Shown: positions 6,185-53,685 of the stretch, one piece after another | Position numbering within the stretch: position 1 is the stretch's first letter | How the letters are laid out: the number at the start of each line of letters is the position of its first letter | Virus record (IMG/VR): IMGVR_UViG_3300014208_000023 | Coordinates: 128,001 to 192,000 of that record | Length of the DNA: 64,000 nucleotides | Strand: one strand, 5' to 3' | Source of the DNA: a virus | Lineage: Duplodnaviria > Caudoviricetes | Made by a program: the position numbers and the translations under genes | The notes under the pieces: generated by a model | What the model saw: only the letters and a program-made list of their open reading frames with translations | The model's database searches: none | Told to the model about the DNA's origin: nothing

Positions 6185-9100
6185 TTATAGGCCTAGAAGA
6201 TTTATTGTCTTATTATCATCAATTACTATTGGTGCATTATTCCATCCAGCTTTTTTAAGATAGACGGTAATTTGCACCTTCGTATTTTGAGTTTGCTCAA
6301 CGGCATCTTGATATAGATTGCTGAACTTAAGCGAAAGAAGGCCAGTGTTATAATTTACGCTAACACCAATTCTATTATCAACTATAACTCCAGTATATCC
6401 GTCAGTAGTTATGCCATTCAATTGTGGGGAGAATGATAGAACTCCAACAGACACTCTAATCTGATTATTTGTAAAGCCAGATAGCGATACTAAACTATTA
6501 TCAGCAAATCTCATGGCTTTATAGCCTATTCTTGTATAGCCAGTTCCAGCATAATCCGCAATAAAGTCAGTTAATAGATTAACTACTTTCTCACTACCGA
6601 AAATCTCAACTGCTGGTATCTCGAAAGATACTGTTCCCATTTCAAAATCAACCTTGAAATATCCACCAGTAGGCGTAGTTATCTGGCCTCCAACATTCAT
6701 TACCAAATTACTTGGTATGAACATATCATTGCGACCAGGATCGAATGCTGGTGTTTCTGGGAAAGTTTGAGTAACGTTTAGATTTGTTGTGCTTGGATTT
6801 ACCAAATATCCAGTAGCAGTATTGAATGCTGCTGGAACCATTTTTGGATTAGAATTAACGACTATGTTATGCTCTTTCCAGCTTAACTGCTTAATGATAC
6901 TGAAGTTAATTGGAGTAACCTTAATATTTTGACCGGACCAGCTGGCATAACCATCAATAAATACATCTGGTTTGGCGTGTAGCGTAGTTGATCGATTAGC
7001 ATCTACTCCAGGATAGTCGTCGGCCCTATCAACATATTTTTCAACCGTTAATTTTACAGCAGTAAATGTCGTACCAATCTTATTAGCAGGACTTGTTGTT
7101 GCTGGGAATGGAGGTAACAAATTAATATAGTTAGTTATGTATGTTACATCGGTGCTAGAGACGGTCATATCTCCATCGATATCTGCCCTTAATACTTTTA
7201 AGAATAAATCAGAAGTATATTCGAGTTTAACTATAGTTACGTTTGTATTACTAAGTAAATTAGTTATTCTAAATGAGCTATTGTTATATAAGCTAGTTGT
7301 TGAATTGAGTATATTGACTTTATGTGTGTCTAGGTTTATAACGCTAGAAAAGTTTGCCGATATACTAGAGAAACTAGCGGATGTTCCATTAGCAACAAGA
7401 ACTCCATCAATTCCGCTTTGAACAACTACACTATTGACATCTAGTAATTGCCATGACAAAGCCGAATCAGTTACGAAATCAGTAGTATGAACTAGATATT
7501 CAGATGTAGTTGGAAGGGTATTTAGTTGTGTTCCAAGTAACTCCTGTGACGCTAGAAGATCATCGGTATCAATTATTCCATCACCGTTTATGTCTCCATA
7601 CATAAGCGTATGAAGCTCAGCCTTTACTATTCTGTAGTATATAGATGGCGTAAGCGTGTTAGGTATTATTTTTGCCTGATTTAATTTGCCCGAATCAAGA
7701 TCTGCTAATAGCGTAATTAGATTTTGGTCGTATCTATAACCATCAGAATAGCCATCTATAATTTTAAATACTATTTCATTTCCAACCATTCCATAATGAT
7801 GGAATGCCGCGTTAGAAATTTGACCAGCAATAGAAGATGATTTAATATTCTGATCAGTAATTGTTCCAAGAAGTAATGGTTCAGACACTGCCTTAATGGA
7901 GTCAAGCGCAATAGTGTTTAGTAAAGATAATTCTGGTGTAAATTGTTTTTGAGAATTAATTGGATTGCCAGTTCTCTCATTTTGAATTGGCGCACTTTCA
8001 GTTATTGCGGCCTTCATTACAGCATAGTATAAATCATTTCTCAAGAAAGAGTTATTGCTAAAGCTATAATCAATTGTAGTTCCGGTATTGCTATCAATAG
8101 TTGTTTTTGGTATTTGTATTCCACTACCATTATCATAGGCTTGGCCATCAGAAACTTTTGCAATATCGGAATATGTTCTAAACCATAGAGCCTCTTCAGG
8201 CACATCTACCCATACACTACCATTAAATAGCGTTTCACGAGTATTTGTTTCAGCATTACTTCCTACCGCAACTTGCATTTCACATGTGTCGGCAGATCCG
8301 GCTCGTTTAACGGTTATTACGTAATAATGTCCAGATGTGATTAGTGATCCAGAACCGACTGGCGTATTACTAAAGATAAAATCAACTGGCTGAGGAACGG
8401 TATTTAATTGAATGCCGTTAGCAAGCATTGAGTTATAGTCAAGACTTATCTGCGCCAGTGGAATATTGGTTGGATCAAAATCAATGGCTAAATTAGGAAC
8501 AATATCAGTTGATGACTGAACTGTTGATTGTAATGCATAGATACTAACTATAAGATCTCCGGTCCAAACTAAATTAGATGGAACTGAATTATTTATCGTA
8601 GATAATAGTAAGCTTACTTTTTGAATATTGTTTGATGTAGATAGAAATTTCTGGCCAATCTGCGAGCTGACATCATTTTCAGCTATTCCTCGTAATTGCT
8701 TGTATCCGGTCTTAATGTTTAGAGCATCTATGTTATAGCTTGGTAGGGCCGTAGATAATAAATTAAATAGAGTTCCACCAGTGGCAACGAAAAAATCTCT
8801 GAACACTAGATTAGGCTCAATATCCTGAGAAATCATAATTGGGTCTCTAGAAAGAGACATGGGCATGGCCTCGCGGATAACTATTCTTCCGCCTAAATTA
8901 AATGATTGTAAGGATCCGCCAACAAAGTCATTGAGAAATATTGCTAAAATATTGCGATAGTGTTTTTTTGATATTTGCTTTTCATTTTTGGCAAAAACGA
9001 ATGTATCGTATTGTAGATTATTTTCAAAATCTAGGCCTATTACGATTATCTTAACTGTTTTATTGCCGGCGGCCAACGATCCCGTAAGTTCAATCTCTAA

Positions 9101-9355
9101 TTGATTTCCATTATTGCTATCCGAAGGCTGCGCTTGGGCGACTATAACTTTACCATCTAAAAGGTCACCAGATAGGCTTGTGTCAAATAAAACACCCTGA
9201 ACTAGATTTTCTGGAAGAACACCAGAACCTAAATGATTGCTTATAAAAGCAGAGTGCTGCTGCTCGTTATGGTTTTGCTCGACTGTGAGATTGGTATCAT
9301 CCACACTCTGTGCATCTGACCAAATATTCTGGGGTGTTGAAATGGGTATTCTCAT
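6185..9355 (-). CDS. Large virion structural protein (baseplate/fibre-associated) with dockerin/EF-hand-like motifs
   Basis: 1056 aa, beta-rich, last gene of the baseplate operon; GDINGDGIIDTDDL and ADIDGDMTVSSTDV; four DGY motifs. Confidence 0.65.
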   Translation of the reverse strand: MRIPISTPQNIWSDAQSVDDTNLTVEQNHNEQQHSAFISNHLGSGVLPENLVQGVLFDTSLSGDLLDGKVIVAQAQPSDSNNGNQLEIELTGSLAAGNKTVKIIVIGLDFENNLQYDTFVFAKNEKQISKKHYRNILAIFLNDFVGGSLQSFNLGGRIVIREAMPMSLSRDPIMISQDIEPNLVFRDFFVATGGTLFNLLSTALPSYNIDALNIKTGYKQLRGIAENDVSSQIGQKFLSTSNNIQKVSLLLSTINNSVPSNLVWTGDLIVSIYALQSTVQSSTDIVPNLAIDFDPTNIPLAQISLDYNSMLANGIQLNTVPQPVDFIFSNTPVGSGSLITSGHYYVITVKRAGSADTCEMQVAVGSNAETNTRETLFNGSVWVDVPEEALWFRTYSDIAKVSDGQAYDNGSGIQIPKTTIDSNTGTTIDYSFSNNSFLRNDLYYAVMKAAITESAPIQNERTGNPINSQKQFTPELSLLNTIALDSIKAVSEPLLLGTITDQNIKSSSIAGQISNAAFHHYGMVGNEIVFKIIDGYSDGYRYDQNLITLLADLDSGKLNQAKIIPNTLTPSIYYRIVKAELHTLMYGDINGDGIIDTDDLLASQELLGTQLNTLPTTSEYLVHTTDFVTDSALSWQLLDVNSVVVQSGIDGVLVANGTSASFSSISANFSSVINLDTHKVNILNSTTSLYNNSSFRITNLLSNTNVTIVKLEYTSDLFLKVLRADIDGDMTVSSTDVTYITNYINLLPPFPATTSPANKIGTTFTAVKLTVEKYVDRADDYPGVDANRSTTLHAKPDVFIDGYASWSGQNIKVTPINFSIIKQLSWKEHNIVVNSNPKMVPAAFNTATGYLVNPSTTNLNVTQTFPETPAFDPGRNDMFIPSNLVMNVGGQITTPTGGYFKVDFEMGTVSFEIPAVEIFGSEKVVNLLTDFIADYAGTGYTRIGYKAMRFADNSLVSLSGFTNNQIRVSVGVLSFSPQLNGITTDGYTGVIVDNRIGVSVNYNTGLLSLKFSNLYQDAVEQTQNTKVQITVYLKKAGWNNAPIVIDDNKTINLLGL

Positions 9356-9360
9356 ATGTC

Positions 9361-12300
9361 CTAGCGGTAGTTAATAAATACTCTGGAGTTTGCTGGCTTG
9401 AGAGTAGAAATTAAGTCTTCCATTACAGTTTTTGCTTTACTATTCTCTCTTAATATACCAAAACTATCAAAGACATTTATAGTAATATCGAATAAACCAG
9501 TCTTCTTATTTTTAATTACGGCAAAATCTGTTGTTATTTCTGATAACTTATTGAAATCTAACAATAAAGTAGTGTATAAATCTTCAGTTGCTGGAAACAC
9601 TACATCTATATTTGTGCTATACCCTGGGTCAATAGGCTCTCCAAAAGGCTTAAATACTGGCCTAGCAACATTACTTATGCGAAGATTATCAATCAATGCC
9701 ATGGCGCCAAGAGTTTGTGTATAATCAGATCCTATTGTAAATTCATTAATGGTATCAGCAAATGACATGGCTGACTGTATAGAGTTATGGCCTACATACG
9801 AAGAACCGAATACCATATTTTCACCAAATAATAGTCCAGATCCAAAAAGAACGTTACCTTGCTCATATCCATCTATAAAGAACCTGATCTCATCAGTTCC
9901 TAGGCCTTGATTTATGATATATTGAGCCCTAAGCTTATGCCATGTATTTTTAGCCCAAAATATAGGAGCGCGAACTTGATGGCTTATTCCAGCACCATCA
10001 ATAGTGAAATTGATGTATCCATAAGGATCTTTATATATAGACATTCTATCGCCAGATAGACCAGTAGGAATATAGATCACTACTATAGATGTTTTTTGAT
10101 TTGGTAACTTCTTATTAAGAAGAAGCGTTTGTGCGTCAGAACTAATGCTTCCACCTGCAAAATAATCCGTATCTTGAGCTCCATTAGCAAGCTTTATGCC
10201 CAATACACTAGATGCTCTTCCAGCTATAGTTACCGTTGCGTTATTTGTGCTTACAATTCGCTCGGTCACGATTCCTGTAGCGTCAAAATAGAATCTATAA
10301 TTGGGATCATTTCCAGTATCATTTAATGGATTTACCCATAACTCTATGGTTCCCTCTGTTTTTGTATTTAAGATGCCAGTATTATCTATAAGTAATGGGC
10401 GATCAGTAAATGATATGCTTTTATTAAAATTACTATTTACACAAGACGCCGACTGTATAAATCCTTTTGTTGCGGTCAGATACACATCCGTATTGTTTGT
10501 TAGCGTAGTCGTATCAAAATCTAATAACATAAGTGTATTTGAATTTGGTTTAATTGCTTTCAAAGAATTGTAGTGTTTGGTTACGCCATCAGCATTAGAG
10601 GCTAGAGTTTCTCCGATTCTTGTGTCAGACAATTTAGTGTCTAAAACAACGAAATCATCTATTATTGCTTTTGACTGATGACTACCATCAAGATCAGATC
10701 CAATAAATCCTCGAAGATTTCCAGTTTCTATTGGTATAGATAGCCCGGTATGATAATCAAGCTCGTAAAGGCCTTGTTTTAATAAATATGGAATACCAGG
10801 AAATAATGACTGTTCAAAAGTAAATTTTCCATTTTGTAATCCGCTACGCGCTTCGCTTACATTAAGTATTTCATAGTTGCCGTCAGTAAATGTTCCTGCC
10901 AAATCACTAGATATAGTGATTGATGTTAGGTCATCTGATACTGCACTTATTAAGTATTGGCCAGCAACTGGAGCTGGAGAATATATTATTAAATAATTTC
11001 CAATATTCTCTTTAGAGAATTGATTAGTTAAGTCTTGGACTGTATTAGCCCCAGATGTTCCTGCCAAAGTATTTCCAACTAGCATCTGATAGCTGTATCT
11101 AATTACTGGAACCAATAAGCTATTCTCTTGCGTAGTTATAGTTTCTTTTTCAGAAATCTTAACAGTGCAACATCCTCTGGCAGTATTGACTGGCTTACAT
11201 GTTACAACTATATAATCAGTTAAAGATACTTTGCCAGCAGTATATTTGGTTCCGTTCTCCGAGAACGTTAAGGTCTCCGTAGCAGCAGCCACGCCATTAA
11301 TTGTTCCAACGATATCTACTGATACGCTGCTTGAATAATCGATATTGTCACCACTTATTGTTACGGAAAGAGTTCTTCCATTATCACTGAGAGATGGTTG
11401 ATCAGTCAATATATTATTTGAGGTAAATACGCCTAAAGATAGGGTTGAGTTGGTTGGGCCAACAACCGTGGTATCTAAAAGAGTATGGTATATTTTCACA
11501 TCTTCCAAGGTTATTGGAGATGGAAGCCTGGTATTTAATATATTTGAAGTATTACCCCAAAGATAGTATTTATTTTTGACTCTACCATGATTAAGGCCTA
11601 GAGTTCTAATTAAGGCGATATCATTTTTTGTAGCGCCGGCCTTAATGGTAAGAACATTACCATAATAACCGTCTCTAGTTATTTCATAAGACGGAAATAG
11701 AGCACGTTGCCCAGGTAGTTCGGTCTCATCGGTAGAATAGATATAAAAAGATGTTCCAGATGTTGTTAGAGGCATAACATCTGATAGTGTAAGCGTATTG
11801 CCAGATACACCAGCGACAATATAATACGATGCGAATCCAACTTGATTTATTTTAATCAAATCCCCAACGACAACGCCTGCCGTTTGAAAGTTATGGCCAA
11901 CAGAAGAAACCACATTACTTAATGCGGTTGTGACCAAATCAATATCCTCTATTGTAGTATGGATTACTGAAACGGCTATATTTTTAAATAAATTAATTTG
12001 CGTAGTAACGGAGAATGAAGTTTTATTTATAGAAAATTTGCAATTAGTTGCAGACACTGGCATTGCAGATGCCAGCGTTAATGTATTGCCATTAACATTA
12101 GTTATTGAGTATCCAGAAGTATTAAAATCAACCTCATCTATATAGATTGTGTCGCCTATATTAATTCCTAGATCAGTAAAATTTAGAGAAGATGTCACGG
12201 TAAAAATACCGGCACTAGTAACCAAATCTGTTGATCCAACTATGCTTTTTAATATTTGGCCTATAATATCTTCAGTTGAAATTGTTCTAAATTTTTGATG

Positions 12301-12546
12301 AAGCAATTCAGATACTTGCCCACCATATTTAATTACATTAGGAACCTCAACTCCATCTATAAATAGGTGCATCTCATCTTGCTTGGTCAATGAGTTTAAG
12401 ACCCAGCTCGTGGCTACGTGATGCTGTTGCCCAGCCTTCCAAGATGATACGTCTGCGCTTACAACATAAATGTTGCCCTTATTATCGGTTATTTTATAGT
12501 TCAAATAGCCGGAAGCGTCTCTAAATAAAGAAAATCTATTTTTCAT
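9361..12546 (-). CDS. LamG/concanavalin-like baseplate protein; C-terminal half of a split gene
   Basis: Begins with the second half of a LamG domain (KNRFSLFRDASGYLNY...WKAGQQHHVATSW...DEMHLFIDGVE). It also contains a complete second LamG domain (EGTIELWVNP...DRMSIYKDPYGYINF...DEIRFFIDGYE). Confidence 0.75.
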   Translation of the reverse strand: MKNRFSLFRDASGYLNYKITDNKGNIYVVSADVSSWKAGQQHHVATSWVLNSLTKQDEMHLFIDGVEVPNVIKYGGQVSELLHQKFRTISTEDIIGQILKSIVGSTDLVTSAGIFTVTSSLNFTDLGINIGDTIYIDEVDFNTSGYSITNVNGNTLTLASAMPVSATNCKFSINKTSFSVTTQINLFKNIAVSVIHTTIEDIDLVTTALSNVVSSVGHNFQTAGVVVGDLIKINQVGFASYYIVAGVSGNTLTLSDVMPLTTSGTSFYIYSTDETELPGQRALFPSYEITRDGYYGNVLTIKAGATKNDIALIRTLGLNHGRVKNKYYLWGNTSNILNTRLPSPITLEDVKIYHTLLDTTVVGPTNSTLSLGVFTSNNILTDQPSLSDNGRTLSVTISGDNIDYSSSVSVDIVGTINGVAAATETLTFSENGTKYTAGKVSLTDYIVVTCKPVNTARGCCTVKISEKETITTQENSLLVPVIRYSYQMLVGNTLAGTSGANTVQDLTNQFSKENIGNYLIIYSPAPVAGQYLISAVSDDLTSITISSDLAGTFTDGNYEILNVSEARSGLQNGKFTFEQSLFPGIPYLLKQGLYELDYHTGLSIPIETGNLRGFIGSDLDGSHQSKAIIDDFVVLDTKLSDTRIGETLASNADGVTKHYNSLKAIKPNSNTLMLLDFDTTTLTNNTDVYLTATKGFIQSASCVNSNFNKSISFTDRPLLIDNTGILNTKTEGTIELWVNPLNDTGNDPNYRFYFDATGIVTERIVSTNNATVTIAGRASSVLGIKLANGAQDTDYFAGGSISSDAQTLLLNKKLPNQKTSIVVIYIPTGLSGDRMSIYKDPYGYINFTIDGAGISHQVRAPIFWAKNTWHKLRAQYIINQGLGTDEIRFFIDGYEQGNVLFGSGLLFGENMVFGSSYVGHNSIQSAMSFADTINEFTIGSDYTQTLGAMALIDNLRISNVARPVFKPFGEPIDPGYSTNIDVVFPATEDLYTTLLLDFNKLSEITTDFAVIKNKKTGLFDITINVFDSFGILRENSKAKTVMEDLISTLKPANSRVFINYR

Positions 12547-14800: not shown

Positions 14801-14834
14801 CATCAAGCACAGTTTGTACCGTTTTTTTTGACAT
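12630..14834 (-). CDS. Tailspike/tail-fibre-like protein with pectin-lyase-like beta-helix (putative depolymerase); high GC
   Basis: [31 protein letters not shown] at the beta-helix entry, beta-helix-like repeats, and a fibre-type C-terminus [34 protein letters not shown]. Confidence 0.75.
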
Positions 14835-14959: not shown

Positions 14960-17900
14960 TTATTGCCTCTGACTCCCAAAATCAAATAAATAATGCTCAT
15001 AATCTGCCGTTAAAGTAATGCCTTCATGAGTCGAAGCCGCATCTACTATGCTATAAGTTATTTTATTATTTCCACTTCTTAATTTACCATTTGAGGTTAT
15101 TGAGTCAGATGTTTTTTTGATATCATAAAATGAACCATTTGTAGTTATTTTGATGATATGTGACGACGCTACGTATCCATCTCTATAGCCATCAGAATAT
15201 CCATCATAGCCATCAGAATATCCATCCGTATATCCATCAACAACATCAACAATATCAACGCACCATCTATTAAATATTCTGGTGCTATCTGGAACTATAT
15301 AGATATATATTCCATCCTTATTTTTATTTGGCAACCCTAACAAATCGTTATTCAAATTATTTATTGTAAATACACCATTAATAGATTTTGGATGATTCTC
15401 ACCTGGTCCAATAAAAACTTCACGATCATGAATTGATCGACCTGCTTTTGTAATTTCAAAAGATAAATCTGCCTGATTATCTATCCCATTCCACTGTGGA
15501 ACAACCCACATTTCCATTGTTCCCTCTTCAATTTTAAGGTTGGAAATTACTGGAAAACTAACCGTCTGATCTGGATTAGATACTAGAATGCCATTGCCAT
15601 GTTTTGCTGGAAGTATTTCGAGCTCACCAGTTGTCTTTACTTTTTGTCTAGAAAGAAGGCTGCTTCCAAGTGACCAATTTGTGAATGCGGCCTCTATTAT
15701 TTCTGGCGGAACATGAGTAATGCTCTGGACTATGTTTCGCAAAGAGCTTACCGTTGGGCCCTGAGTAAATGACTGCATTGCCGCAACAAGAGCATCGCGA
15801 TACCTCTCACGCGAGAAGTCTATATTTAGATTATTTAAAATAGGGATATCGATAAGTGTTCCGAAATTTTTAAGCAAGGCATCACGCAATGCTCCGGCCT
15901 TATAGGTTACGTAATATTTATTTCCGGGCTCTACCGTTGTAGATTTAGAGAAATCTAATATATTGTCTCCATGCTCATAGCTTAAAATTATCTCATCGGC
16001 AAGATAGCTGTAATCTATTAGATAGTCTCCTCGACTATAATCGACGACTATTCTTGATAAATCAGCTATCGTAAATGAGTATGTAACCAATACTGCATCG
16101 CCCGTAACTGGAGTATTTACGCCAGATAGGGTTAGCGTTAAAGGAGAGCCGGCAACAACAATACCTGAACCATCCCAAAGTTGAGCACTATCAGATAGTC
16201 TAGTAACACTAACAGTTACGCTTATATTTGGAGAAATATATGGAAGATTAGTATTAGTAACAATAATATGATTTAGACCAGAAAGCTGAACTGATTGATA
16301 CTCGCGATATTGTTTGGTAGAGACACTTATTGTTTTTCCATTTACAGTGGCAGATGTAGCAAAATTAATTGGACTAACATTATTTAAAAGGTCTTCCCTT
16401 TCGAATAATCCTCTTACATATTTGACATAGTCAGTTACACCAGGTATGAAGGTTGCCGATTCAAATACTCCAATATTTCCATTATATATTTGATATGGAA
16501 GAGTTGCGACACCACCTAAGAAGTTTTCAGCAGTAGTATCAAATACTGATGGAAGAATAAGAGAATCAGTGAATGAAGTATATTCAAATGATCTTACCTT
16601 ATCAGCCAAAGAGTTTAGCTTATAATACATATCAGATATTGTTATGATATGTGGATGCTGCGTTTTAACGTATCCTCTTTTATAAAATACGGTTCCTATT
16701 GATAGATCCTGGTCTGTAGCAACCACAACCCAAATCACGCCATTTTTATAATCTACTTGATATTCTCCAATTTGAGTTAGTTTGGAATTATTTTGACTTT
16801 CAGTAAGTCCGATATCATAATAAAACTCGGAAGAGAACGTGACAGTATCAGAAAATGTTATGCTTTTATTTTGAGAGTGAGCTATACCATCTTCAGACGC
16901 AGCAATAATGTTATTGTTGAGAAGGAATATTTTAAATAGTTTTTTAGTTACAGAAAGAGTAGTGGTTGTGCTAACGAAAAGAGTTTCATTTGGAACATCA
17001 TCAAATGACACACGCTCTCTAGTTAAATCAGTAATTTTTGGGGGTGTTTGGTATGTAAAAAATACTTTGCTTTGATTCCATCGCGATACATTATAAACTT
17101 CGCCGCTAGTTTCATTAAAAATTCTAAATACATTAGTTATTGGAAAGTTTAATGGCCTAATTACATTTAGCGCCTCTAGTCTATTTTCAATTCTTTCCGA
17201 TAACTCTTCCTTATGGACTTCTGCAAAATAATCTACATCTTTAACTAGAACTTTATCAAAACTATATGTAATAGCGGCTGGCGATCCGGTTAAGTTACCT
17301 AAAGGTAGAGCTACGATATCTGACGCGGAATCATCATATACATAGTCTATTTCTGATTGAAAGGGATATCGATAATAATATATTGCAAGTGGAGGGTAGG
17401 CGCCCGTTCCAGATCTATTATTGTCTTCACCAAACACATATACTGTTCCAGTAGAGTAATCTACCGAATATTCTCCAACTCGTGATGGTAACGATTCTAG
17501 TCTAAAAGGTATTTCATAAACAAACGCTGGGTGAGCAGTATTGCTTCCGGGAAAAGCATTTGGGTCAGAGAAGGATATATTACCAACTTTTCCATTTATA
17601 TTATTGGCGCTTACGATCGGAGCGTGCTTTAGATTAAATACATTTTCTATTGCTGGCAGCACTTCTCTTCCAGAAGGAAGAACGGCATTAGCTATAATAG
17701 TTGCTGGATCGATTACCTTGCCCTGATCTTTATACTGATAATCTATAGTTATAGATGCTATATTCTCTAAAGAGAATGATGTATTTGATAATACCTTATC
17801 GCTTAATCTAAATTGGTTTTCTCCTAGCGAAACATATGTAAATGCATAGCTAGGATCATATTTAGAATTTTGGACTTGGTATCCATAAATAGTTTTATCA

Positions 17901-42899: not shown

Positions 42900-43694
42900 T
42901 TACAGATTGTTGATTACATCCGTAAGCGTTTGTTGTATGTTTATAGTCAAATTTGGAGAAACTGGAGAGCTATTATCAACCCTGCCAAATTCTATACTTG
43001 TATTGATTGAATCGATAATATTTCTTATTGGAATATGCCTGCGCCATTCTGATCTATATTGTAAAGTAACCATTTGCTTGAAAAGGGTATCAGTGCGGTC
43101 AATTGCCTCATTTGGCGCACCAGCACTAACTCCACCAGGTTTAATGCCTACGCCATTTTTTTCCATATCATCACAAGCTATCTGCGTAAATAATAGTGAA
43201 ACAAGCTCTACTAAATCGTCCCTAGTTCTGGGGTCTCGGGCAATAACTTCAATAGTTATAGTGCCTTCCCAGCTTCCTGCGAATATAAAGTGAGATGGTG
43301 TAGGTATTGTTGCAATATTTCCATAACCGTCTTCAAAAACAAGATTATCCCACTGAACATTGGCTCTTTCTCTGTTGAAAGAGATTGGAACAGAATTAGC
43401 TCCTCCGTGCCTTATAATTAATGCCGGGTAATATACGACATCATATCTATGTGACGAGTTAATATATAGACGCGTAGTTAAATTATCTTTGTATCCAGCC
43501 GTTTGTGGTAAATTTGTATGATCAGGAGTCTGTGGAAATCCAAAATGATCCGTAGCAAAATGATACATAGAGTCTCTTGCAAAAAAATCTCGTAATTGCT
43601 GAATAACTAATTCCTTTGGCCATAGGATCATAGATCCTTGGACTATATTATATAGTCCATAAAGATCGCTATGGAAAGTATTATTAGTTGTCAT
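42900..43694 (-). CDS. Tail terminator/sheath stabiliser-like protein
   Basis: Directly upstream of the sheath; YPALIIRHG...GSWEGTITIEVIARDPRTRDDLVELVSLLF. Confidence 0.6.
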   Translation of the reverse strand: MTTNNTFHSDLYGLYNIVQGSMILWPKELVIQQLRDFFARDSMYHFATDHFGFPQTPDHTNLPQTAGYKDNLTTRLYINSSHRYDVVYYPALIIRHGGANSVPISFNRERANVQWDNLVFEDGYGNIATIPTPSHFIFAGSWEGTITIEVIARDPRTRDDLVELVSLLFTQIACDDMEKNGVGIKPGGVSAGAPNEAIDRTDTLFKQMVTLQYRSEWRRHIPIRNIIDSINTSIEFGRVDNSSPVSPNLTINIQQTLTDVINNL

Positions 43695-43695
43695 T

Positions 43696-46600
43696 TTATA
43701 TTCTAGAGCCGATAGTAAATTCTTGAGTTGGAGTTATTGAGCTAAAGCTCCAAGAAACCCCAGAACCAGTTACGACTGCGGCTATTTTATATAGAAGAAT
43801 AACATCATTAAAATTACTTACAGAATCAGTTAATGGAATTGCTTGCAAATTAGCAAGAGTAGCCGATCTTACCGCATATTGAATTGGAGACGCGATTGTT
43901 GGATTTATTACGTAGAATATTTTATTCGTTAATCCAGTAGAATCTGCTATTAATTCTATTTGCCCTCTAGTATTAGCGCATAGTAACCAATTAATTGTAT
44001 TAGTTGGTGGAGATGGAGTAATGTTATCTCGAAGAATAGGTATAGTTGTGACTGAATTGTTTATTTGGACAATTTTACCATCTATAAGTGCAGTTCCGCC
44101 AGTTAGTAAAACATTACTTCCAGATATAGTTACTGCAAATCCATTGAGAACTCTATTATGCATCATAACTCTAGATATTGAAGTAATAAAGTTAAGTGCA
44201 GATTTAGTCAAATGCTCTTCGCTTATATTTCCAAACTCTCTCTTATCTTGGAGATGAGTCATAGATTTAGTCGTGTCATTCATCTGACAAGTAGAGAGCA
44301 GCATCTCTTCTTGATTTAAAGATAACGATTTGAATAGTTGAATATCTAAAGTTTCCGTTCCGCCAAACGTGCTAACTGTAGTATCTAAATCAATTATAAA
44401 ATCAATATAATCAATATTAGTTTCGTCATAAAACCTAATTACTTCGCCTTTTTTACCAGCAGTGGTGGGGCCAACTTTTGACCCAGAAACATTACCTAGA
44501 TAGCCAGAATATACTCCTGTATCGGTTGTATATGCCGTAATGGTTAGCCTGATTTCTTTATAATCACCAACTGTATATCCCCTAAGCTTCGGAGAAACAT
44601 TATACATATTTATATTGCCTATGTTACCGGCAATAAGAAAACGCGCGCGCTCGTGTGTGAATGTGTGCCCATTTTTATCAACATAGTTTTCAAAATATCT
44701 CTTGAATGGACCAAGAGATGTTGCGTCCGCCACATTTTGAGCATTGAATGAAACGCTATCGTTTGTAAAATATATATTTACCGGAATGCTCGTTGTTGTG
44801 GGGGCGGGACTAGATCCGGCACCATGCACTCCGTCATAAACGGTAATGTTAGCATATCCATCTTGAGAGCCGCAATTGAAATAAGCTATGTTCTTAATGG
44901 TAAAGCGGCCATAGTCTCTTAAGTTGAACGATGGGTTTGTAGTTGCGATAGCCGGCTGAACTACGATAGTTTTTCCGATAGCCAAAGATGAACTTGAAAC
45001 ATCTTCAGTTAGTTGATAAACAACCTCAACTCTATTGGAGAGTATTTTGGTAGCTGGGGCAGGAAGTATAGTTGCTTTAAAATAACCATCACCATTAACA
45101 TCTACCGTATTAGTTATAGCTAACGGATCCGAATAAAGCGTATCTCGTTCGGTTCCATCCACATAAAAGAAATTTCTCTTGAGTGGCGTGAACATTATCG
45201 TAGGGCTAATAAATGCTGCTACTGATGTTGAGTATGACGCGGCCGGAGGAGGGCTTGCCATATTGCTTCCAAGAACACCAAATCCAAGAGGGTCTATTGA
45301 ATTATATGAATCAACTACGTTTTGTGGGAAGGCCGCAATAGAAGATGTTGTATATGCGCCAGTAGTATCTACGGTTCCGCTAATTATGCTAAACCCACTA
45401 TTGTTATAGTGATCGGCCATTGCTATACCGAACTGCCCTTCATGTTCAAACGCTAAAAATCTATAGTTGAAACCACTAGCTCTGAATGCAGCATTAGTAG
45501 AATTCACTATACCTGATAGCGTATATTTTCCAGGAGTAATTCCCTTATTGCCAGTCACATCAACTGCTGGCAATGTAAATATTGAAGAGACATCTCCATT
45601 TTGGAATAAGCATAAATAGAGCTTGTAATGTGATGCCGATAACTGTGATGGGTTAAAGTTTATACTCAAAGTCATGGCTCCACGAGGACTTGCAACCATT
45701 AAGGTTTCATATTCTCCAAAACTATTAGGAACTCTAATGTTGGCAAGAGCATGTTGCTTATCTCTATTGAATAGAGACCTATTTATTTGTGCGTAACCAG
45801 ACGAAGATCCAGTTTTATTTCTTCCATTTATTCTTACGGCATATGTTCTAGTTGTAACATTAACTATTGCTTTAACTGACTCAATAGTAAATTGATAAGC
45901 TATACCGGTACCATAGTTAATTGTTAGTAAGTCACCGGGCTTAACCAATGCAAAGTGAGCGTCAAAAATATAGCCATCAGAATCCGCCACTGTTGGATTA
46001 AAAAGAATAACGTCATCGCCATTATCAATATCATCAACTGGATTTGATGATGTTGGTCCTGGAGGGTTATTTAACCAATATGCAGTTACCGGCGTTGGTG
46101 GAACTAATAGCGTTCCGTATCCATCAATTAATAGTGGGGTAGATCTGGAATGTCTTGAGATACCATCACCAAAAAGATTTTGAGTTCTACCGCCAAGCAG
46201 TAGAAGGCTTGAACTATCGATGTAATTAACTATTTTTTGTACATCAGTATTTGATTGTGGAATGCTACTAAAATTAGCGGTATTAACATGAACGCCAGAA
46301 GCATTGTGTGCAAAATTAGTTGGAGGAACGGTTCCGCCAGTTAATGATGTAACACCAGAAGACCCATCAGATTTTTCATGAACAACAAGATCGTTGCTGA
46401 TGTCTTCAGCAATTGTTTTGAGATTAGTTGTATTTCTGCTTACTACAGAAGTTCCTATAGAAGTAGTTCCAGTTGCTGGGCTAGTCTTAACTAATGAAAC
46501 CCCGGCTCCGACATCAATATGAGATAAAATGTGACGATCATCAGTACCATCTAAATGTGGCTGAAGCTTTATTCCAGTTAAAGAAAGGAAACCTCCTAAT

Positions 46601-46962
46601 ACATCAACAGCATTACTTAAGTTTAAATATAGTGTATGTAATGATCCGGTAGAATAAGTAAGTGCAAGCTTGCTCTCATCAATGGCCGCAGTAGGTGATA
46701 TTTCAGAGTTGGTTATTGGTAAAGCAATAAGTCCTATTCCCAATAACGCAGATGGCTTTATTGTTCCGTCAGCATTCATGGAAATGGCTAAACGATCCGC
46801 AATAGATGCTAGCGATCCCTTGCCACCAATACCAACCTCCTCTTCTAATGAAAAGATGGCCGATCTAGTTGCATTTATGGCTATACCACCAATTTCAACT
46901 ACGTTGTCATCGACACGAGGTAAGGATGCGTCGTCATCTAAAGATGTGGGGAAGTTGGTCAT
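43696..46962 (-). CDS. Large virion fibre/collar-like structural protein
   Basis: 1088 aa; N-terminal TNFPTSLDD...INATRSAIFSLEEEVG attachment-type segment; beta-rich; four DGY motifs. Confidence 0.6.
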   Translation of the reverse strand: MTNFPTSLDDDASLPRVDDNVVEIGGIAINATRSAIFSLEEEVGIGGKGSLASIADRLAISMNADGTIKPSALLGIGLIALPITNSEISPTAAIDESKLALTYSTGSLHTLYLNLSNAVDVLGGFLSLTGIKLQPHLDGTDDRHILSHIDVGAGVSLVKTSPATGTTSIGTSVVSRNTTNLKTIAEDISNDLVVHEKSDGSSGVTSLTGGTVPPTNFAHNASGVHVNTANFSSIPQSNTDVQKIVNYIDSSSLLLLGGRTQNLFGDGISRHSRSTPLLIDGYGTLLVPPTPVTAYWLNNPPGPTSSNPVDDIDNGDDVILFNPTVADSDGYIFDAHFALVKPGDLLTINYGTGIAYQFTIESVKAIVNVTTRTYAVRINGRNKTGSSSGYAQINRSLFNRDKQHALANIRVPNSFGEYETLMVASPRGAMTLSINFNPSQLSASHYKLYLCLFQNGDVSSIFTLPAVDVTGNKGITPGKYTLSGIVNSTNAAFRASGFNYRFLAFEHEGQFGIAMADHYNNSGFSIISGTVDTTGAYTTSSIAAFPQNVVDSYNSIDPLGFGVLGSNMASPPPAASYSTSVAAFISPTIMFTPLKRNFFYVDGTERDTLYSDPLAITNTVDVNGDGYFKATILPAPATKILSNRVEVVYQLTEDVSSSSLAIGKTIVVQPAIATTNPSFNLRDYGRFTIKNIAYFNCGSQDGYANITVYDGVHGAGSSPAPTTTSIPVNIYFTNDSVSFNAQNVADATSLGPFKRYFENYVDKNGHTFTHERARFLIAGNIGNINMYNVSPKLRGYTVGDYKEIRLTITAYTTDTGVYSGYLGNVSGSKVGPTTAGKKGEVIRFYDETNIDYIDFIIDLDTTVSTFGGTETLDIQLFKSLSLNQEEMLLSTCQMNDTTKSMTHLQDKREFGNISEEHLTKSALNFITSISRVMMHNRVLNGFAVTISGSNVLLTGGTALIDGKIVQINNSVTTIPILRDNITPSPPTNTINWLLCANTRGQIELIADSTGLTNKIFYVINPTIASPIQYAVRSATLANLQAIPLTDSVSNFNDVILLYKIAAVVTGSGVSWSFSSITPTQEFTIGSRI

Positions 46963-48250: not shown

Positions 48251-50596
48251 TTAAATCATATACCAATCTGTTCCATTTGCAATAAATTCCCAAGATCCAA
48301 AATTTGCCGAAAATGTTATTGCAGAATTCAAAGTCTCTAATTTATTACCAGTAATAACATTAAATATCAAATCATACATTAAGCTAGGGCTCCAAGTTGA
48401 AGCGGAATACGTAGCAAGATTACCAGCTGGACCGCTAGCCCCATTTATAACCTCAACATAATTAGTTATATCTCCACCAGAATATGATAAAACAACAACA
48501 TAATTAGTTGCATCAGTAAGTGAAATTTGATTTGCGCCAGAAAATGTAAAACTTGTTAAAGTTGGGCTTCCTGATAAAGAAGCTGATGATACAACATCAG
48601 ATGTTGCCAGCGCCGCCCCAGTTGGAACGCTTGAAGTTCCAAATACTCCTGAATGAGCATAAATTGATGCTGTCATGTTTCCAGTAGGAGAGCCAACTTT
48701 ATTGATTAAAAACTTACAGGATGTTAGTAATTTGCCTACATTAATAGCGGTAAAAGATTGCGATACCGCTTGGTTATGAGAAGCATCGCTTGATAAATTC
48801 AAAGCGGTACCAGTATCACTATAATTAATATCATTTCCTGGTGAAACTATTATATTATAGGTTCCAGCCAAACCATCCCTATCTTTAATAATTAAATTTC
48901 TTCCAAGTGTAGGTTCTGGCAATATAATAGTTGCATTTGCGGCTATGGTAGTCAAATCTACTAATATAATATAGTCAGCAATTCCACCAGCATCAATAGA
49001 GTATGGTGTTGAGCTAATTGTTTTGGTACGAAGATATAATGCTCCATCCAAACTAATTGAACCACCATTTGCTGGGGTAATTATATTTGCAGCATTAACA
49101 GTAATATTGGCGGTTGTTGCAGTTGTATTTGCGGTCACTGCGGTTATTGTTGATGTTGTTCCAGCATTTAATACTACATTATTTACGGCTCCCATAAATA
49201 ATCCATTAGTAGAATCTATATTTGTAGATCCACCACTAAATAAGAAAAGATCTAATAATCGAGATTCTACTAAAACCTCTCCAGATGATGATGCGGTAAA
49301 TCCTGTGCCAGATAAATTACCGTTACATATAAATGATGAATACTGATTAAAAGTAGCAGATATTCCAGCATCAATAATTACTGGATCTCCACCAATTAAT
49401 GCTCCAGCCTTACTAATTATAAAATTATTTGAAACAATATTTATATTAGAAATATCTCCAGCCGCCGGAGGTGCAGCAATTACAGCTTTAATATAACATA
49501 AAGTGGTTAATGCCGCATGATTTCCATAAAACTCATTATCGCTTATTAACGCATTATTATCATTCATATGAATAATACAGTTTTTCTCAACGGTGGCGCC
49601 ATCAGCATCTAAATATCCGTGAGATCTAATTTTACAATTAGATACTTCTAAATAATCATTTCTTCCACCGGTAGAATTAAATGATATTGGTTGCGAAAAT
49701 CCATCGATAAATGAATTGGTAATTTTAAGAAAAGTGCCGGTAGTAATTGTCGTTACTACATCTAGTTTAACTGCGAATCTTGTTGCTGAACTTACCACCT
49801 CAGCTACGTTAAGTGCTCTTCCAAGAATTTTAACACCATCAATTTCTAGATGAGACCCTTGCTCTTGCATTATTAATTGAGACTCGCCAGTTACATTTTG
49901 TGGCAATCCGTAAAAAACGTCACCGAGTAAAGTTGGCTCAATAAAGTTGTCACAAATAGTAACATTTACTATTTTACTGGCCCTGGCAAACATAAACTTA
50001 TTTTCAGTATCTACTGAATTGTCTATTTCTGTTCTTACTGTATCGGTTTTAATTTTAAATAATGGAATTGGAGTTGCAAGGCCATTTATTTGTGGTGGAG
50101 ATAGGGCCAGATTTAAACAAGTGGCATTTATAATTTTAGTTCCGAGGCCTTCACCATAAATAGTAATTCCTGGTGGAACATCAATCGTATTTACAATATA
50201 ATATGTTCCAGCAGGTATAAATATTACGCCGCCTCTAGTTAATCTCTCATATCCTGCAGGTATGCCGGTATTGGCCGCTAGTGCTGCAAATAAAGGATTT
50301 AAAAATGTATCTAGTGCTGGAATGATATTGCTAAAATAGAAATTGGGCGCTGGATTCGTATATGAGTTATATCCATCTGGAACAGCCATGAAAGCTATTC
50401 CGGCCCCAGCCATTGACGCTATGAATGTATTGATATTATCAATCGATCCCTGAACGTTAGTGGCACCTCCAACTCCTGGCGAGTTATGTATATCAACGGC
50501 ATTATGATTAAAATCATTGCCATTTACGTGTTTGCGGAAATCGAAAAGATCGGCAGCAATTCTTCCATTGCCAGGTGTGAAAGGTCCATTTACCAT
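48251..50596 (-). CDS. Fibre/spike protein with pectin-lyase-like beta-helix
   Basis: RGGVIFIPAGTYYIVNTIDVPPGITIYGEGLGTKI followed by beta-helix-like repeats and a beta-sandwich C-terminus. Confidence 0.7.
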   Translation of the reverse strand: MVNGPFTPGNGRIAADLFDFRKHVNGNDFNHNAVDIHNSPGVGGATNVQGSIDNINTFIASMAGAGIAFMAVPDGYNSYTNPAPNFYFSNIIPALDTFLNPLFAALAANTGIPAGYERLTRGGVIFIPAGTYYIVNTIDVPPGITIYGEGLGTKIINATCLNLALSPPQINGLATPIPLFKIKTDTVRTEIDNSVDTENKFMFARASKIVNVTICDNFIEPTLLGDVFYGLPQNVTGESQLIMQEQGSHLEIDGVKILGRALNVAEVVSSATRFAVKLDVVTTITTGTFLKITNSFIDGFSQPISFNSTGGRNDYLEVSNCKIRSHGYLDADGATVEKNCIIHMNDNNALISDNEFYGNHAALTTLCYIKAVIAAPPAAGDISNINIVSNNFIISKAGALIGGDPVIIDAGISATFNQYSSFICNGNLSGTGFTASSSGEVLVESRLLDLFLFSGGSTNIDSTNGLFMGAVNNVVLNAGTTSTITAVTANTTATTANITVNAANIITPANGGSISLDGALYLRTKTISSTPYSIDAGGIADYIILVDLTTIAANATIILPEPTLGRNLIIKDRDGLAGTYNIIVSPGNDINYSDTGTALNLSSDASHNQAVSQSFTAINVGKLLTSCKFLINKVGSPTGNMTASIYAHSGVFGTSSVPTGAALATSDVVSSASLSGSPTLTSFTFSGANQISLTDATNYVVVLSYSGGDITNYVEVINGASGPAGNLATYSASTWSPSLMYDLIFNVITGNKLETLNSAITFSANFGSWEFIANGTDWYMI

Positions 50597-50623: not shown

Positions 50624-52255
50624 TTAAGGAGCAACCCAAATTAGGGAGTGTATATGTCCTATGCCATTTTCTCCTGGAACTTGAGAGCCATCTAAAACTA
50701 TTCCTCCCCTGACGACGTGGCTATGTCCTTGAACTATAGAGGTAATTCCATCAACTTGCAGCGGATTAATGGTTTTATCTGACACCTGAATAGTATGCGT
50801 ATGAGGAGGGAAGCCAATAGATGTAGCTATACTAGTAGATAGGGCTCTAAAGATATTTATGCCAACAGAGCCATCAGAATTAGTATTTACATTCTCATAA
50901 ATTGGAACCATATAAATTGGATCCGTTTTACGAATTCTTTGTAAGGTAAATCTTTGTAGCCCAGAATTATCTAGAATAAACTTATTTCTAGTTACATTAA
51001 GGACTTCATATCTAAACTCCTCATTGCCGGCCTGGTCAAATCTAACTATAAAGTCTCTCTCGTGAATAGTTGGAACTGTTAAGGTCCAACAATTTGGTTT
51101 TAGATTAGATTCTAGGCCGCTTTCTGTAGGATCAACCGTTTCTACCGTAGGATCAAAACGAACCATAATTTTTCTATCAGAGCGTCTTGGGCTGAAATAT
51201 TGCTGCCATCCAACTACGAATCCAGTTCCAAAACATTTATTGCATCGCCCCTCAGGATACTCTCTCATACTATAACACGTGCAGGTAACGCCGGTCCATT
51301 GACGACGAACCAATACTACTGGCTCACCATCAACATTAAGAAGGGTTTCTTGCCTCTGTAAATTTTGAATAACCGGAGATACTCCTCTTATAATAAAAGA
51401 GCCAGTATAACCATCTATACATCCTCTAGTTCCACCAATATAGCTTCCAATGCATTTCCCAGAAAGAACTAATCTTGGATCACTATGATATTGATTATAG
51501 TCATATGAAGGAAAATTAAGATTGATTTGATCGCTTACCGTCATATCAGTATTTAATAAATCTACTGTTTTTTGATGATAACCATCAGTTGGCAAGTATT
51601 TCTGATTTATTACTCCAAATCTAGATTCACACTCAAATACTCTTGTATTATCTTCCTCATCAACTAGTGGCCATAAGGTAACATTTGGGTCCCAAGACTG
51701 ATATCCATCTGATCCACTAATATAATGTGCGTGCGGAGTTGTGGTTCCATAACCTCGTTCGGATACTACTAAATCTCCATATCCATCTATTGATGAATAA
51801 GTTATTAATTCATTTCCAATTTTAACTATTCCAGATGATGGAAATCCATCGACATCAACCAAAGGTATTAGCGTTGAAACTGAAGAGATATCACTAAAAA
51901 GAAGTGACTTTGGTAACACGCGAAGATTACCATAAACTATCGGCAGTGTAGCAAAATTAAATACGCTAGAGTTATATTCAAAAGCTCTTATGCCAAAATG
52001 ATACATCGTTCCTGGCGTCAAATCTTCAATAGTTGCAGAAGTATATCCGTCCAAACATATGAATGAAGGATCCTGATCGAAATGATCGGTAGTAAAATCA
52101 GGGCTTTGTCTATCATTAAAATATATGTTATAAGCAATTTTATTTGTAACTAGCACCGGATATGCTTTGGCCCACGTCACTGTTATAGACGTTCCATTAA
52201 AGTCGGAATTGGCAGCAGTAATTCCAATTATGCTTTTATTTAAGTAGTAAGGCAA
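50624..52255 (-). CDS. Head-closure/neck protein with N-terminal FN3 domain, Zn finger and C-terminal HxH motifs
   Basis: TTG start with AAGGA RBS. FN3 motif ATIEDLTPGTMYHFGIRAFEYN; CTC...CNKCFGTG; DFIVRFD...RYEVLNVTR; HTH, HSH and HIH at the C-terminus; five DGY motifs. Confidence 0.65.
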   Translation of the reverse strand: MPYYLNKSIIGITAANSDFNGTSITVTWAKAYPVLVTNKIAYNIYFNDRQSPDFTTDHFDQDPSFICLDGYTSATIEDLTPGTMYHFGIRAFEYNSSVFNFATLPIVYGNLRVLPKSLLFSDISSVSTLIPLVDVDGFPSSGIVKIGNELITYSSIDGYGDLVVSERGYGTTTPHAHYISGSDGYQSWDPNVTLWPLVDEEDNTRVFECESRFGVINQKYLPTDGYHQKTVDLLNTDMTVSDQINLNFPSYDYNQYHSDPRLVLSGKCIGSYIGGTRGCIDGYTGSFIIRGVSPVIQNLQRQETLLNVDGEPVVLVRRQWTGVTCTCYSMREYPEGRCNKCFGTGFVVGWQQYFSPRRSDRKIMVRFDPTVETVDPTESGLESNLKPNCWTLTVPTIHERDFIVRFDQAGNEEFRYEVLNVTRNKFILDNSGLQRFTLQRIRKTDPIYMVPIYENVNTNSDGSVGINIFRALSTSIATSIGFPPHTHTIQVSDKTINPLQVDGITSIVQGHSHVVRGGIVLDGSQVPGENGIGHIHSLIWVAP

Positions 52256-52269
52256 GGTATCCTTTTAAA

Positions 52270-52282
52270 ATACGAGAATATT
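52270..52282 (-). promoter_or_regulatory. Putative late-promoter motif AATATTCTCGTAT
   Basis: 12/13 identical to the copy upstream of the capsid gene; 14 nt before the TTG start of the neck gene. Confidence 0.55.
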
Positions 52283-52288
52283 ATTGGG

Positions 52289-52780
52289 CTAATCATCAAT
52301 GCGACTAGCCAGCTCGTCTTTCTTTTCCTTACGTTCTTTCTTACCATCTACGTCGTGATGATTCAATAAATGTTCAATATATTTATTAGCCTCTTCATCG
52401 CCATACTGGTCATCCATATATTCGATTTGATATGTAAATGCCTCTATCTCGTCCTCGTTCTCCAAATACTCGCCATCGTTAGCGCCCTTGGTTGGCTTAT
52501 TACGAGTTGTCATTTGAAGAAAGTGAGATATCTCATGTAGAATATAATGAATATTATTCTTAAAATTATTATCTAATAATAGTTTCTTATTTAGGATTAT
52601 AACTCCACGAACTGTTTTGGCAGAAACATCAACATCATCTCCAAAACGAATGGGCACAAGATCAATAACATCTTCATTTACTTTAAAATCTTTGCACATT
52701 TTTTTATATGTTTCATCTTCACGAAGCATATCCTTACCTTCTTCTATTTTTTTAAGCAGCTCGGCCCTGGATTGTTCCAT
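52289..52780 (-). CDS. Putative zincin metallopeptidase-like protein
   Basis: HYILHEISHFLQ (HExxH) followed by YLENEDEIEAF. Confidence 0.65.
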   Translation of the reverse strand: MEQSRAELLKKIEEGKDMLREDETYKKMCKDFKVNEDVIDLVPIRFGDDVDVSAKTVRGVIILNKKLLLDNNFKNNIHYILHEISHFLQMTTRNKPTKGANDGEYLENEDEIEAFTYQIEYMDDQYGDEEANKYIEHLLNHHDVDGKKERKEKKDELASRIDD

Positions 52781-52782
52781 AA

Positions 52783-53685
52783 TTAAAATAGTCTCCGAGC
52801 GCGAAGAGTCGATAGTCTGCGTGCAAGTGGATTTGTTCCGTTGGTCATCGTTAGCGTTCCAAGTCCTTGTGGTCCTGGCTTCATTGATGCCTTAATTTGC
52901 TTCAATTTCTCAAGATGTGTTGTATGCATTTGTGAATACTGGCTATTCATTAGTTCCGAAACCGTTGGAACATTAACGGCAACCCCGTTATCAGTTATTT
53001 GCCACTCACGCCCACGTTCAATTAAAGCCTGGCTAGAGAGCGCGTAAATAGCGGCACCCTCTACTATGATATAATGGAAAAGGTCTATAATACTTGTGTT
53101 GTCAAAATTAAAGGTAGTAAAATGTGGGATAGCATTAAACTCTGCTAGGCTAGCTGCCAAAAACGTAACTAATGTATCTACGCTAAAAATATCGCAGTCA
53201 GTGTAATAAATATTACCAGCAGAATCCATTTCCTGTATCTTGCCAGAGCTATTTAATCTTGCCCGTAGCGTTTTAATGAGTTTATTTATGTTTAGAATAG
53301 ATGTTTGTGAGTAATGGAACCCAGGATCTTCACCCAAAGCATAATACCCATCAGGACTTATTACTGCAGGAAGATTGCTATCAAAAACAACGAAATTTTT
53401 CGTTTGTGTAGTTACATTACCGGCAATACTTCCCTGCCAAATATCACTCCAAACCCCTAAGGGCCCGGCCAGCCCTATATCGTAGGCATATGCGTATATT
53501 CCGACACCCATTCTCTGGACCCCAGAACTTGTTGGCGAAAACAAAACGCTACCAGAAGGCTGAACTATTGAGATAGTTGGAAAAGTATCGGTATCAGTGG
53601 GCACACCTAAATTATTGTAGAAAGTGGCAGTTAATACCACTCTATCCGTCACGCTTAAAAGTTCCCCTCTAGCTTTATTGACCAT
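52783..53685 (-). CDS. Head-tail connector/neck protein candidate
   Basis: ATG 53685 with AGGAG RBS (track start TTG 53715). Ig-like N-terminus and a helical adaptor-like C-terminus; first gene of the structural operon. Confidence 0.55.
   Translation of the reverse strand: MVNKARGELLSVTDRVVLTATFYNNLGVPTDTDTFPTISIVQPSGSVLFSPTSSGVQRMGVGIYAYAYDIGLAGPLGVWSDIWQGSIAGNVTTQTKNFVVFDSNLPAVISPDGYYALGEDPGFHYSQTSILNINKLIKTLRARLNSSGKIQEMDSAGNIYYTDCDIFSVDTLVTFLAASLAEFNAIPHFTTFNFDNTSIIDLFHYIIVEGAAIYALSSQALIERGREWQITDNGVAVNVPTVSELMNSQYSQMHTTHLEKLKQIKASMKPGPQGLGTLTMTNGTNPLARRLSTLRARRLF

Follow-up and report, generated by a model that had tools for sequence, protein, structure and literature searches.

A 428,320-bp phage genome, recovered as a single contig with direct terminal repeats, carries a long minus-strand structural block within the 64,000-nt stretch analysed here (genome positions 128,001-192,000 of IMG/VR record IMGVR_UViG_3300014208_000023). 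We refer to this whole stretch as the window, and coordinates are those of the window unless genome positions are named. The tripeptide Asp-Gly-Tyr (DGY) is strongly over-represented in the products of this block, and the outer virion proteins of the phage and its clade carry it approximately 10-25 times over chance. We tentatively favour the view, to which we would give slightly less than an even chance, that DGY marks exposed virion loops, as a sequon or recognition tag, for glycosylation by enzymes that the phage encodes.

Translation of the open reading frames (ORFs) of the window gave 20,264 amino acids (aa), of which 8,640 belong to ten virion ORFs with 28 in-frame DGY between them (1.46 expected under a null based on the composition of each protein). 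These counts and positions match, ORF by ORF, those of a first-pass annotation, which had roughly estimated about two by chance. The carriers are listed below with their DGY residues and, where determined, observed and expected counts for the clade orthogroup.

6185..9355, minus strand: terminal tail fibre, 1056 aa; four DGY, at 534, 538, 801 and 985, all in the C-terminal half; orthogroup 377 vs 15.2 expected (25-fold).
9361..12546, minus strand: fibre with a LamG-like N-terminus, 1061 aa; two DGY, at 292 and 892; orthogroup 187 vs 13.3 (14-fold).
14960..18706, minus strand: fibre, 1248 aa; six DGY, at residues 1157-1178; orthogroup 174 vs 15.1 (12-fold).
15173..15238, minus strand: tandem array DGYxDGYxDGYDGYxDGYxDGY near the C-terminus of the preceding fibre, with a recent 21-nt duplication inside it.
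18708..22778, minus strand: baseplate J-like wedge protein, 1356 aa, much extended at the C-terminus; two DGY, at 790 and 888, outside the J domain (66-280).
40023..42824, minus strand: tail sheath, 933 aa; two DGY, at 148 and 414; orthogroup 24 vs 2.0 (12-fold).
42900..43694, minus strand: p264, a 264-aa protein whose gene adjoins that of the sheath; one DGY, at 122 (DGYGN); orthogroup 16-fold.
43696..46962, minus strand: peripheral protein, 1088 aa; four DGY, at 280, 329, 625 and 701; orthogroup 310 vs 23.3 (13-fold).
48251..50596, minus strand: 781-aa protein with a weak pectate-lyase-like match; one DGY, at 74; orthogroup 35 vs 4.0 (9-fold).
50624..52255, minus strand: neck protein, 543 aa, with an fn3 domain, a neck/stopper-like fold and Cys4 and HxH motifs; five DGY, at 69, 157, 183, 224 and 281; orthogroup 284 vs 11.2 (25-fold).
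52783..53715, minus strand: p310, a head-proximal protein of 310 aa; one DGY, at 122; orthogroup 57 vs 3.0 (19-fold).

The remaining minus-strand ORFs of the block 6185-53715 (6,951 aa, tailspike included) contain no DGY at all (P = 2e-6 under a uniform rate), and the tube-like, large inner-tail, baseplate-core and gp25-like proteins of the window are among those without it. This absence had been noted before, for about 5,200 aa; the absence stands and the figure was too low. In the sheath, the motif occurs only in the length-variable middle region, with none in the conserved C-terminal sheath domain (845-929). The neck assignment of ORF 50624 draws on a predicted model that resembles phage neck and stopper proteins.

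Set among the fibre genes is a pectate-lyase-like tailspike (12630-14834, minus strand) with a guanine-plus-cytosine (GC) content of 0.53 against approximately 0.36. It has no DGY, as the first-pass annotation had stated, and this fits a recently imported gene that has yet to acquire the tag.

Over the whole window there are 29 DGY against 3.09 expected from composition, the twenty-ninth lying in a PhyH-like ORF at 56996. A first-order Markov null predicts 5.6, and 1,000 within-protein shuffles gave a mean of 3.09 and a maximum of 10. DGY ranks first of all 8,000 tripeptides (P = 9.5e-19); the runner-up is GGG (P = 5.6e-5), and the smallest P reached by any tripeptide in any of the shuffles was 3e-8. 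With each array collapsed to a single site, 22 DGY sites are left (P = 9e-19). The enrichment therefore survives a full tripeptide count against a shuffled null, and it is confined to peripheral virion proteins. The rest of the genome, 110,207 aa beyond the window, holds 23 DGY, near the expectation of 13.5, and five of the 23 fall in one small ORF.

That small ORF, in the early region (genome 77984-78436, minus strand; L007:3985-4437, minus strand), holds a second tandem DGY array, in which 30 residues contain five copies. A complete 472-kb relative has a homolog of this ORF (E = 6e-9) in which the array is missing; the gene is thus a real one, and the array was inserted into it in a lineage-specific manner.

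The signal lies at the level of protein and not DNA. Codons for the motif (GAT/GAC, GGA/GGT/GGC/GGG, TAT/TAC) vary in background proportions, and 28 of the 30 minus-strand matches to GAYGGNTAY are in frame. We therefore rejected a DNA word (restriction, methylation or repeat element) as the cause. The motif is also specific: the ten proteins contain no NGY, EGY or DGW and four DGF, and Tyr follows 28 of their 74 DG dipeptides (38%). Such a spectrum speaks against DGY being a beta-turn-plus-aromatic element of beta-rich tail domains, inherited or convergently favoured for folding and devoid of any signal function, since the turn-equivalent NGY and DGW are absent and DGF is not enriched. Tandem arrays with a period of 3-4 cannot be hairpins, and the beta-rich inner tail proteins lack DGY altogether.

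Relatives were examined as 80 neck-centred and 80 glycosyltransferase-centred loci from viral contigs (GC 24-48%), the latter gathered by an alignment-based scan for the GT4-family glycosyltransferase described below. The neck protein has 791 homologs, mostly from contigs of 200-480 kb, and a tblastn search against the phage record collection returned no match. Literature searches for a DGY motif in phages found nothing. All neck loci but one show a 7-24-fold DGY enrichment. In the GT4 loci, the fibres upstream of GT4 contain 905 DGY (91 expected), and the large proteins downstream of it are DGY-free in all 80. Pooled relatives, taken independently, also rank DGY first among tripeptides (41 vs 4.3 expected, P = 5e-26). 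A non-redundant set of clade proteins (898,000 aa) contains 1,824 DGY, in which Tyr follows 30% of DG dipeptides (1,824/6,058) and Asp precedes 44% of GY dipeptides (1,824/4,162).

By orthogroup, the carriers (fibres, sheath, neck, p264, p310 and the 781-, 1088- and 104-aa proteins) are enriched 9-36-fold. Connector w52289, the tube, baseplate core, GT4, GT2, a DUF16-like protein and an epimerase are at or under expectation. The split first noticed in the window is thus conserved in homologs, with the same orthogroups on either side across approximately 160 loci. The 104-aa protein (58973-59287, minus strand) has no DGY in the window copy; its orthologs (L011-L089) are the densest group in the clade, with 21 in 3,289 aa (36-fold).

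Some sites are nearly fixed, whereas most are not and turn over rapidly. Among 119 neck proteins, DGY is found at position 224 in 117, at 281 in 104, at 183 in 102, at 180 in 97 and at 20 in 80. The DGYGN of p264 is fixed in DGY-rich relatives and is replaced by DQVTN or DAFGG in DGY-poor or DGY-weak lineages. By comparison, 51 homologs of fibre 6185 place DGY in 38 alignment columns, 31 of them in the C-terminal half; 16 are singletons and one is near-fixed (43/51). In the 1088-aa family and the sheath, DGY positions differ by lineage, often within indels or as doublets, and homologs of the 1088-aa protein that reach 1,400-1,900 aa carry 3-9 DGY each at shifting positions. Another DGY lies within five residues at 15% of clade sites. 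This turnover, together with the arrays, supports the earlier suggestion that array expansion is a sign of selection on copy number.

Sites were mapped on AlphaFold models of the neck protein (predicted local distance difference test, pLDDT, 76) and the C-terminal half of fibre 6185 (pLDDT 74). Coil, or an insertion relative to the model, accounts for 553 of 558 neck-family sites (99%) and 216 of 298 fibre-family sites (72%), where the coil background is approximately 64%. In the models some sites form tight hairpin turns, and others, including the most conserved, would lie in long low-confidence loops. The loop location anticipated by the first-pass annotation is thus borne out on predicted structures; exposure, which it also proposed, is read from that loop location. 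With its enrichment over composition and dipeptide nulls, its location in loops and its turnover of sites at a kept density, DGY has the character of a short linear motif.

Several DGY sites are classic hairpin turns (neck 20, 69 and 157; fibre 140 and 142), and the Tyr position of p264 is hydrophobic in other lineages; both would suit a structural turn. Such a role does not sit easily with sites scattered over non-homologous proteins and turning over fast. Loop location, turnover and arrays are also what would be seen if DGY were a short docking motif bound non-covalently by a phage protein (a decoration protein, fibre-attachment protein, chaperone or assembly factor), with copies and arrays giving avidity and the glycosyltransferases being unrelated neighbours. 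A linear motif of this kind accounts for these features equally well. The most conserved neck sites fall in a stretch, 215-294, that the monomer model cannot place and that appears interface-like, and a DGY array is present in a small protein of a non-structural region, as docking would allow. Docking is nonetheless unlikely in our view: no candidate reader protein emerged, three residues offer little binding energy, and one partner would need to reach sites in very different folds and positions.

Calcium-binding loops are a further context in which DGY can arise. Some DGY of fibre 6185 homologs form positions 5-7 of dockerin-like loops, but the [DN]x[DN]xDG context of EF-hand and dockerin loops accounts for only 41 of 1,824 clade sites (2.2%) and one of 29 in the window, and was rejected as a general cause. 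Separately, fibre 6185 (residues 724-752) and its homologs contain two dockerin-like calcium-binding repeats (DVNGDG.., DVDGDG..), unusual in a phage fibre, which may point to attachment of the cohesin type or to folding that depends on calcium. Carbohydrate-binding sites typically feature Asp and aromatic residues. DGY could accordingly be imagined as a minimal sticky site in its own right, the Asp carboxylate and Tyr ring giving weak multivalent binding of host polysaccharide, environmental polymers or metal ions and so aiding adhesion, with no writer involved. Its Asp/aromatic make-up, its confinement to the outer surface of tail and fibres, the array near a fibre C-terminus and the minority of true calcium-loop positions in dockerin-like repeats are in keeping with this idea. 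However, stacking would be served equally or better by Trp or Phe, and neither DGW nor DGF is enriched; EF-hand context is found at only the few sites given above, and the association of DGY with GT4-GT2 and the joint loss of tag and enzymes (see below) are left unexplained. We consider a sticky site a poor prospect.

In the neck protein there is also an invariant CxC...CxxC cluster, together with three invariant HxH motifs near the C-terminus (residues 325-341 and 485-536). The sequence suggests that these are metal sites resembling those of some phage fibre tips.

Sugar genes flank the structural block, as the first-pass annotation had reported for GT2, GT4 and an RfbB-like gene, all three of which are real (865-1629, 5055-6164 and 63377-64000 onwards). 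They are listed here with other genes of the flanks.

5055..6164, minus strand: GT4-family (GT-B) glycosyltransferase, candidate writer, directly downstream of the last fibre gene; PF00534, 63.6 bits against a cut-off of 26.4.
865..1629, minus strand: GT2-family glycosyltransferase, syntenic partner of GT4, parted from it here by an inserted GH5 gene.
63377..64000, minus strand: nucleoside diphosphate (NDP)-sugar epimerase/dehydratase, RfbB/Gmd-like, cut by the window end.
2543-4954, plus strand: GH5 cellulase-family gene, 803 aa (E = 5e-47), between GT4 and GT2; absent at this place in 80 related loci.
55893-57805, plus strand: two-gene island, GC 0.46, with a 335-aa ORF (55893-56900, no Pfam match) and a PhyH-family 2-oxoglutarate-Fe(II) oxygenase (56996-57805).

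Just beyond the window on the GT4-GT2 side are a second GT2 and an NDP-sugar dehydratase/epimerase. Approximately 5 kb past the other window end, a 916-aa open frame (genome 197326-199848, minus strand) has both GT2 and GT4 domain matches, as a fused transferase would; with the epimerase on this far flank (genome 191416-192315), it places sugar genes on both sides of the structural block.

Throughout the clade, GT4-GT2 closes the fibre module in conserved synteny. Four relatives, at 41-51% identity, share the gene order fibre (9361), fibre (6185), GT4, GT2, and overall this order is kept at 41-57% identity. Of 80 loci, 67 have GT2 no more than 10 kb from GT4, and 51 have an epimerase homolog near the pair. 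The GT4 EX7E motif (E264-x7-E272) is invariant in five orthologs. Each of the ten DGY-rich genomes queried, four of them complete, has one GT4 ortholog, and DGY-enriched fibres and GT4 occur together in 82 of 82 GT4 loci. PhyH, GH5 and the 335-aa ORF are not conserved beside the module (80 + 80 loci) and lie in higher-GC DNA, and all three were rejected as parts of the system. Searches of solved structures with GT4 and GT2 gave generic GT-B and GT-A relatives and a weak match to chlorovirus B736L (E = 2e-4), which are uninformative on the acceptor. A predicted complex of GT4 with the DGY-array segment of fibre 14960 scored 0.00 in a run without controls, and speaks neither for nor against an interaction.

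The conserved enzymes also bear on whether a different covalent chemistry acts on Tyr or Asp. Examples would be Tyr phosphorylation, sulfation, nucleotidylylation, and dityrosine or Asp cross-links hardening the tail surface, each made by a host or phage enzyme other than the neighbouring glycosyltransferases. Asp-Gly is chemically reactive. This reactivity, the strict requirement for both Tyr and Asp, and the surface loops would all be compatible with such chemistry. Against it, GT4, GT2 and the sugar epimerase are the only syntenically conserved enzymes, PhyH, the sole nearby oxygenase, is not conserved, and no linked gene for a kinase, sulfotransferase or comparable enzyme turned up at the module, although no systematic search was made. 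We judge chemistry of this sort improbable.

A few neck lineages without the motif provide a natural control. P0148, P0136 and P0138 form a 100/100 clade nested within DGY-rich sequences, sister to a protein with five DGY. Other DGY-poor or DGY-weak neck lineages include P0154/P0158/P0168, P0161/P0174 and P0159-P0166. We walked the DGY-poor contig of the nested lineage gene by gene over 65 kb of its 170 kb (JGI 3300045700 contig Ga0486075_000049, 85.8-151.1 kb; L181, L185, L186, L188, L189 and L191). The neck, the 2184-aa homolog of ORF 43696, p264, p310 and the baseplate-J proteins have no DGY, a 2157-aa fibre has one and the sheath two; p264 has DQVTN at the fixed DGYGN position. The sole cluster is four repeat-like DGY in a depolymerase-like protein. 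Neither GT4 (by hidden Markov model and tblastn) nor GT2 (by Pfam) was found in the 65 kb read. The fibre block is followed by a helicase and then an epimerase homolog, which in relatives lies beyond GT4-GT2. The tail module of this lineage is also rearranged, its baseplate-core genes and baseplate-J/fibre block being inverted relative to the neck-sheath-tube block.

This joint absence of DGY and GT4-GT2 is suggestive, not conclusive, in linking the tag to the transferases. It would be a coincidence if DGY were a docking motif. Against a structural turn, the same folds do without DGY here (none in the neck, the 2184-aa homolog or p264), although the four DGY of the depolymerase-like protein do resemble repeat rungs. 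Taken with the substitution spectrum and the arrays, this leads us to largely reject the structural turn, which we hold to be very unlikely. A second lineage, the DGY-weak P0165/P0166, complements this: its neck-side proteins have lost the tag, its fibres are still 5-6-fold enriched and it keeps a divergent GT4 directly after the fibres. G006-G009 are fragments that stop short of the fibre end and are uninformative as negative controls; G008, whose sequence stops within the last fibre, is DGY-weak rather than DGY-free. The co-occurrence of motif and transferase genes, a check named in the first-pass annotation, is suggested by the GT4 loci and by one joint absence, the latter being a single independent contrast.

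Returning to glycosylation, our working model is that the three residues of DGY would act as an acceptor or recognition tag, shown to the solvent by loops of the neck, outer sheath domains, baseplate rim and fibres. Soluble glycosyltransferases made by the phage itself would add a sugar or short glycan at or beside the tag, in the cytoplasm and late in infection, the acceptor most plausibly being the Tyr hydroxyl. That Tyr is preferred to Phe is in line with the hydroxyl being needed. GT4, whose gene directly follows that of the last fibre, would act with its partner GT2 and with phage-encoded nucleotide-sugar enzymes, and their product would be a glycan coat over the tail exterior. Selection would act on how many tags are displayed and how exposed they are, and not on where exactly they sit; the fast turnover of sites, the doublets and the arrays would follow from this. 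Modification of the tag, Tyr as its acceptor, GT4 and GT2 as the writers and the role of the coat are all inferences. The first-pass annotation had proposed DGY as a sequon for Tyr modification by the flanking GT2, GT4 and RfbB genes. Tyr specificity, loop location, GT4-GT2 synteny and one joint loss agree with that proposal; the link to GT4 and GT2 is drawn from the synteny and the one loss, and the modification itself is putative.

Several points weigh against glycosylation at DGY. To our knowledge no sequon with Tyr has been described. Exposure of Tyr is deduced from predicted loop location only, and the most conserved neck sites (224 and 281) are in a stretch of low pLDDT that is possibly an interface. 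At p264 other lineages have Phe or Val in place of the fixed Tyr, which is how a packed residue would behave, and the small early-region protein that also has a DGY array is not known to be in the virion. The co-variation of tag and GT4/GT2 amounts to one independent loss; otherwise both are clade-wide and could be co-inherited. Even in that one case a glycosyltransferase possibly lies elsewhere in the 170-kb DGY-poor contig, beyond the 65 kb read. The glycan made by the glycosyltransferases could also be meant for something else (fibre Ser/Thr, or the envelope of the host). Finally, the known Tyr-linked glycans of S-layers are transferred outside the cytoplasm (PMC2943079).

Each ingredient of the proposed system has precedent, whereas the combination does not. 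Among known sequons are N-x-S/T and the Bacteroidota O-glycosylation motif D-S/T-A/I/L/V/M/T. Like these, DGY is a three-residue motif with an Asp determinant in exposed regions, whose positions turn over at a kept density and whose copy number is selected. It differs in its proposed acceptor, Tyr with Gly at -1 and Asp at -2, in the proposed cytoplasmic site of modification, in having a virus particle as carrier and in that the link between enzyme and motif is a presumed one. Glycosylation motifs of bacterial O-oligosaccharyltransferases are known and none is DGY (PMC12645811). Tyr O-glycosylation of S-layer proteins occurs in Paenibacillus alvei SpaA and in Thermoanaerobacter (PMC2943079), where, as proposed here, Tyr stably accepts O-glycans in a protein lattice displayed at the surface, each protein having few to several sites. 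However, S-layer glycans are built on lipid carriers and moved outside the cytoplasm by an O-oligosaccharyltransferase, with no DGY consensus reported, whereas the phage candidates are a soluble GT-B and GT-A. Soluble bacterial glycosyltransferases do glycosylate protein Tyr directly from a nucleotide sugar, as in Photorhabdus PaTox and Yersinia effectors (PMC12645811). The PaTox-type toxins are GT-A enzymes that modify one Tyr of host Rho GTPases and are not motif-directed, and the phage GT4 is unrelated to them in sequence.

In some mycobacteriophages, glycosyltransferases encoded by the phage glycosylate the virion at the C-terminal ends of its capsid and tail-tube subunits (Freeman et al., 2023, cited in PMC12619734). 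They share with the phage described here glycosyltransferase genes beside structural genes and, if our proposal holds, a glycan coat placed in the cytoplasm on proteins of the assembled virion. Unlike those phages, for which no tripeptide sequon is known, the present clade has DGY in loops of the neck, sheath, baseplate and fibres and leaves capsid-side and tube proteins untagged, the modification in our case being presumed.

That DGY is the first defined tyrosine O-glycosylation sequon, a portable tag with a soluble phage GT-B/GT-A pair as its reader and a coat tuned by tag gain, loss and multiplication, is a possibility that we rate somewhat below even. If true, no sequon for tyrosine-linked protein glycosylation would precede it, nor any phage virion modification directed by a motif, and its three-residue tag and matching soluble enzyme pair would be of use in glyco-engineering. 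It would also mean that a widespread clade of environmental huge phages sugar-coats its tail surface, which would matter for how hosts are recognised, for withstanding proteases and defences and for the stability of the particle. Even if the chemistry were different, a clade-wide 10-25-fold enrichment that singles out the outer virion surface clearly signals a process yet to be recognised.

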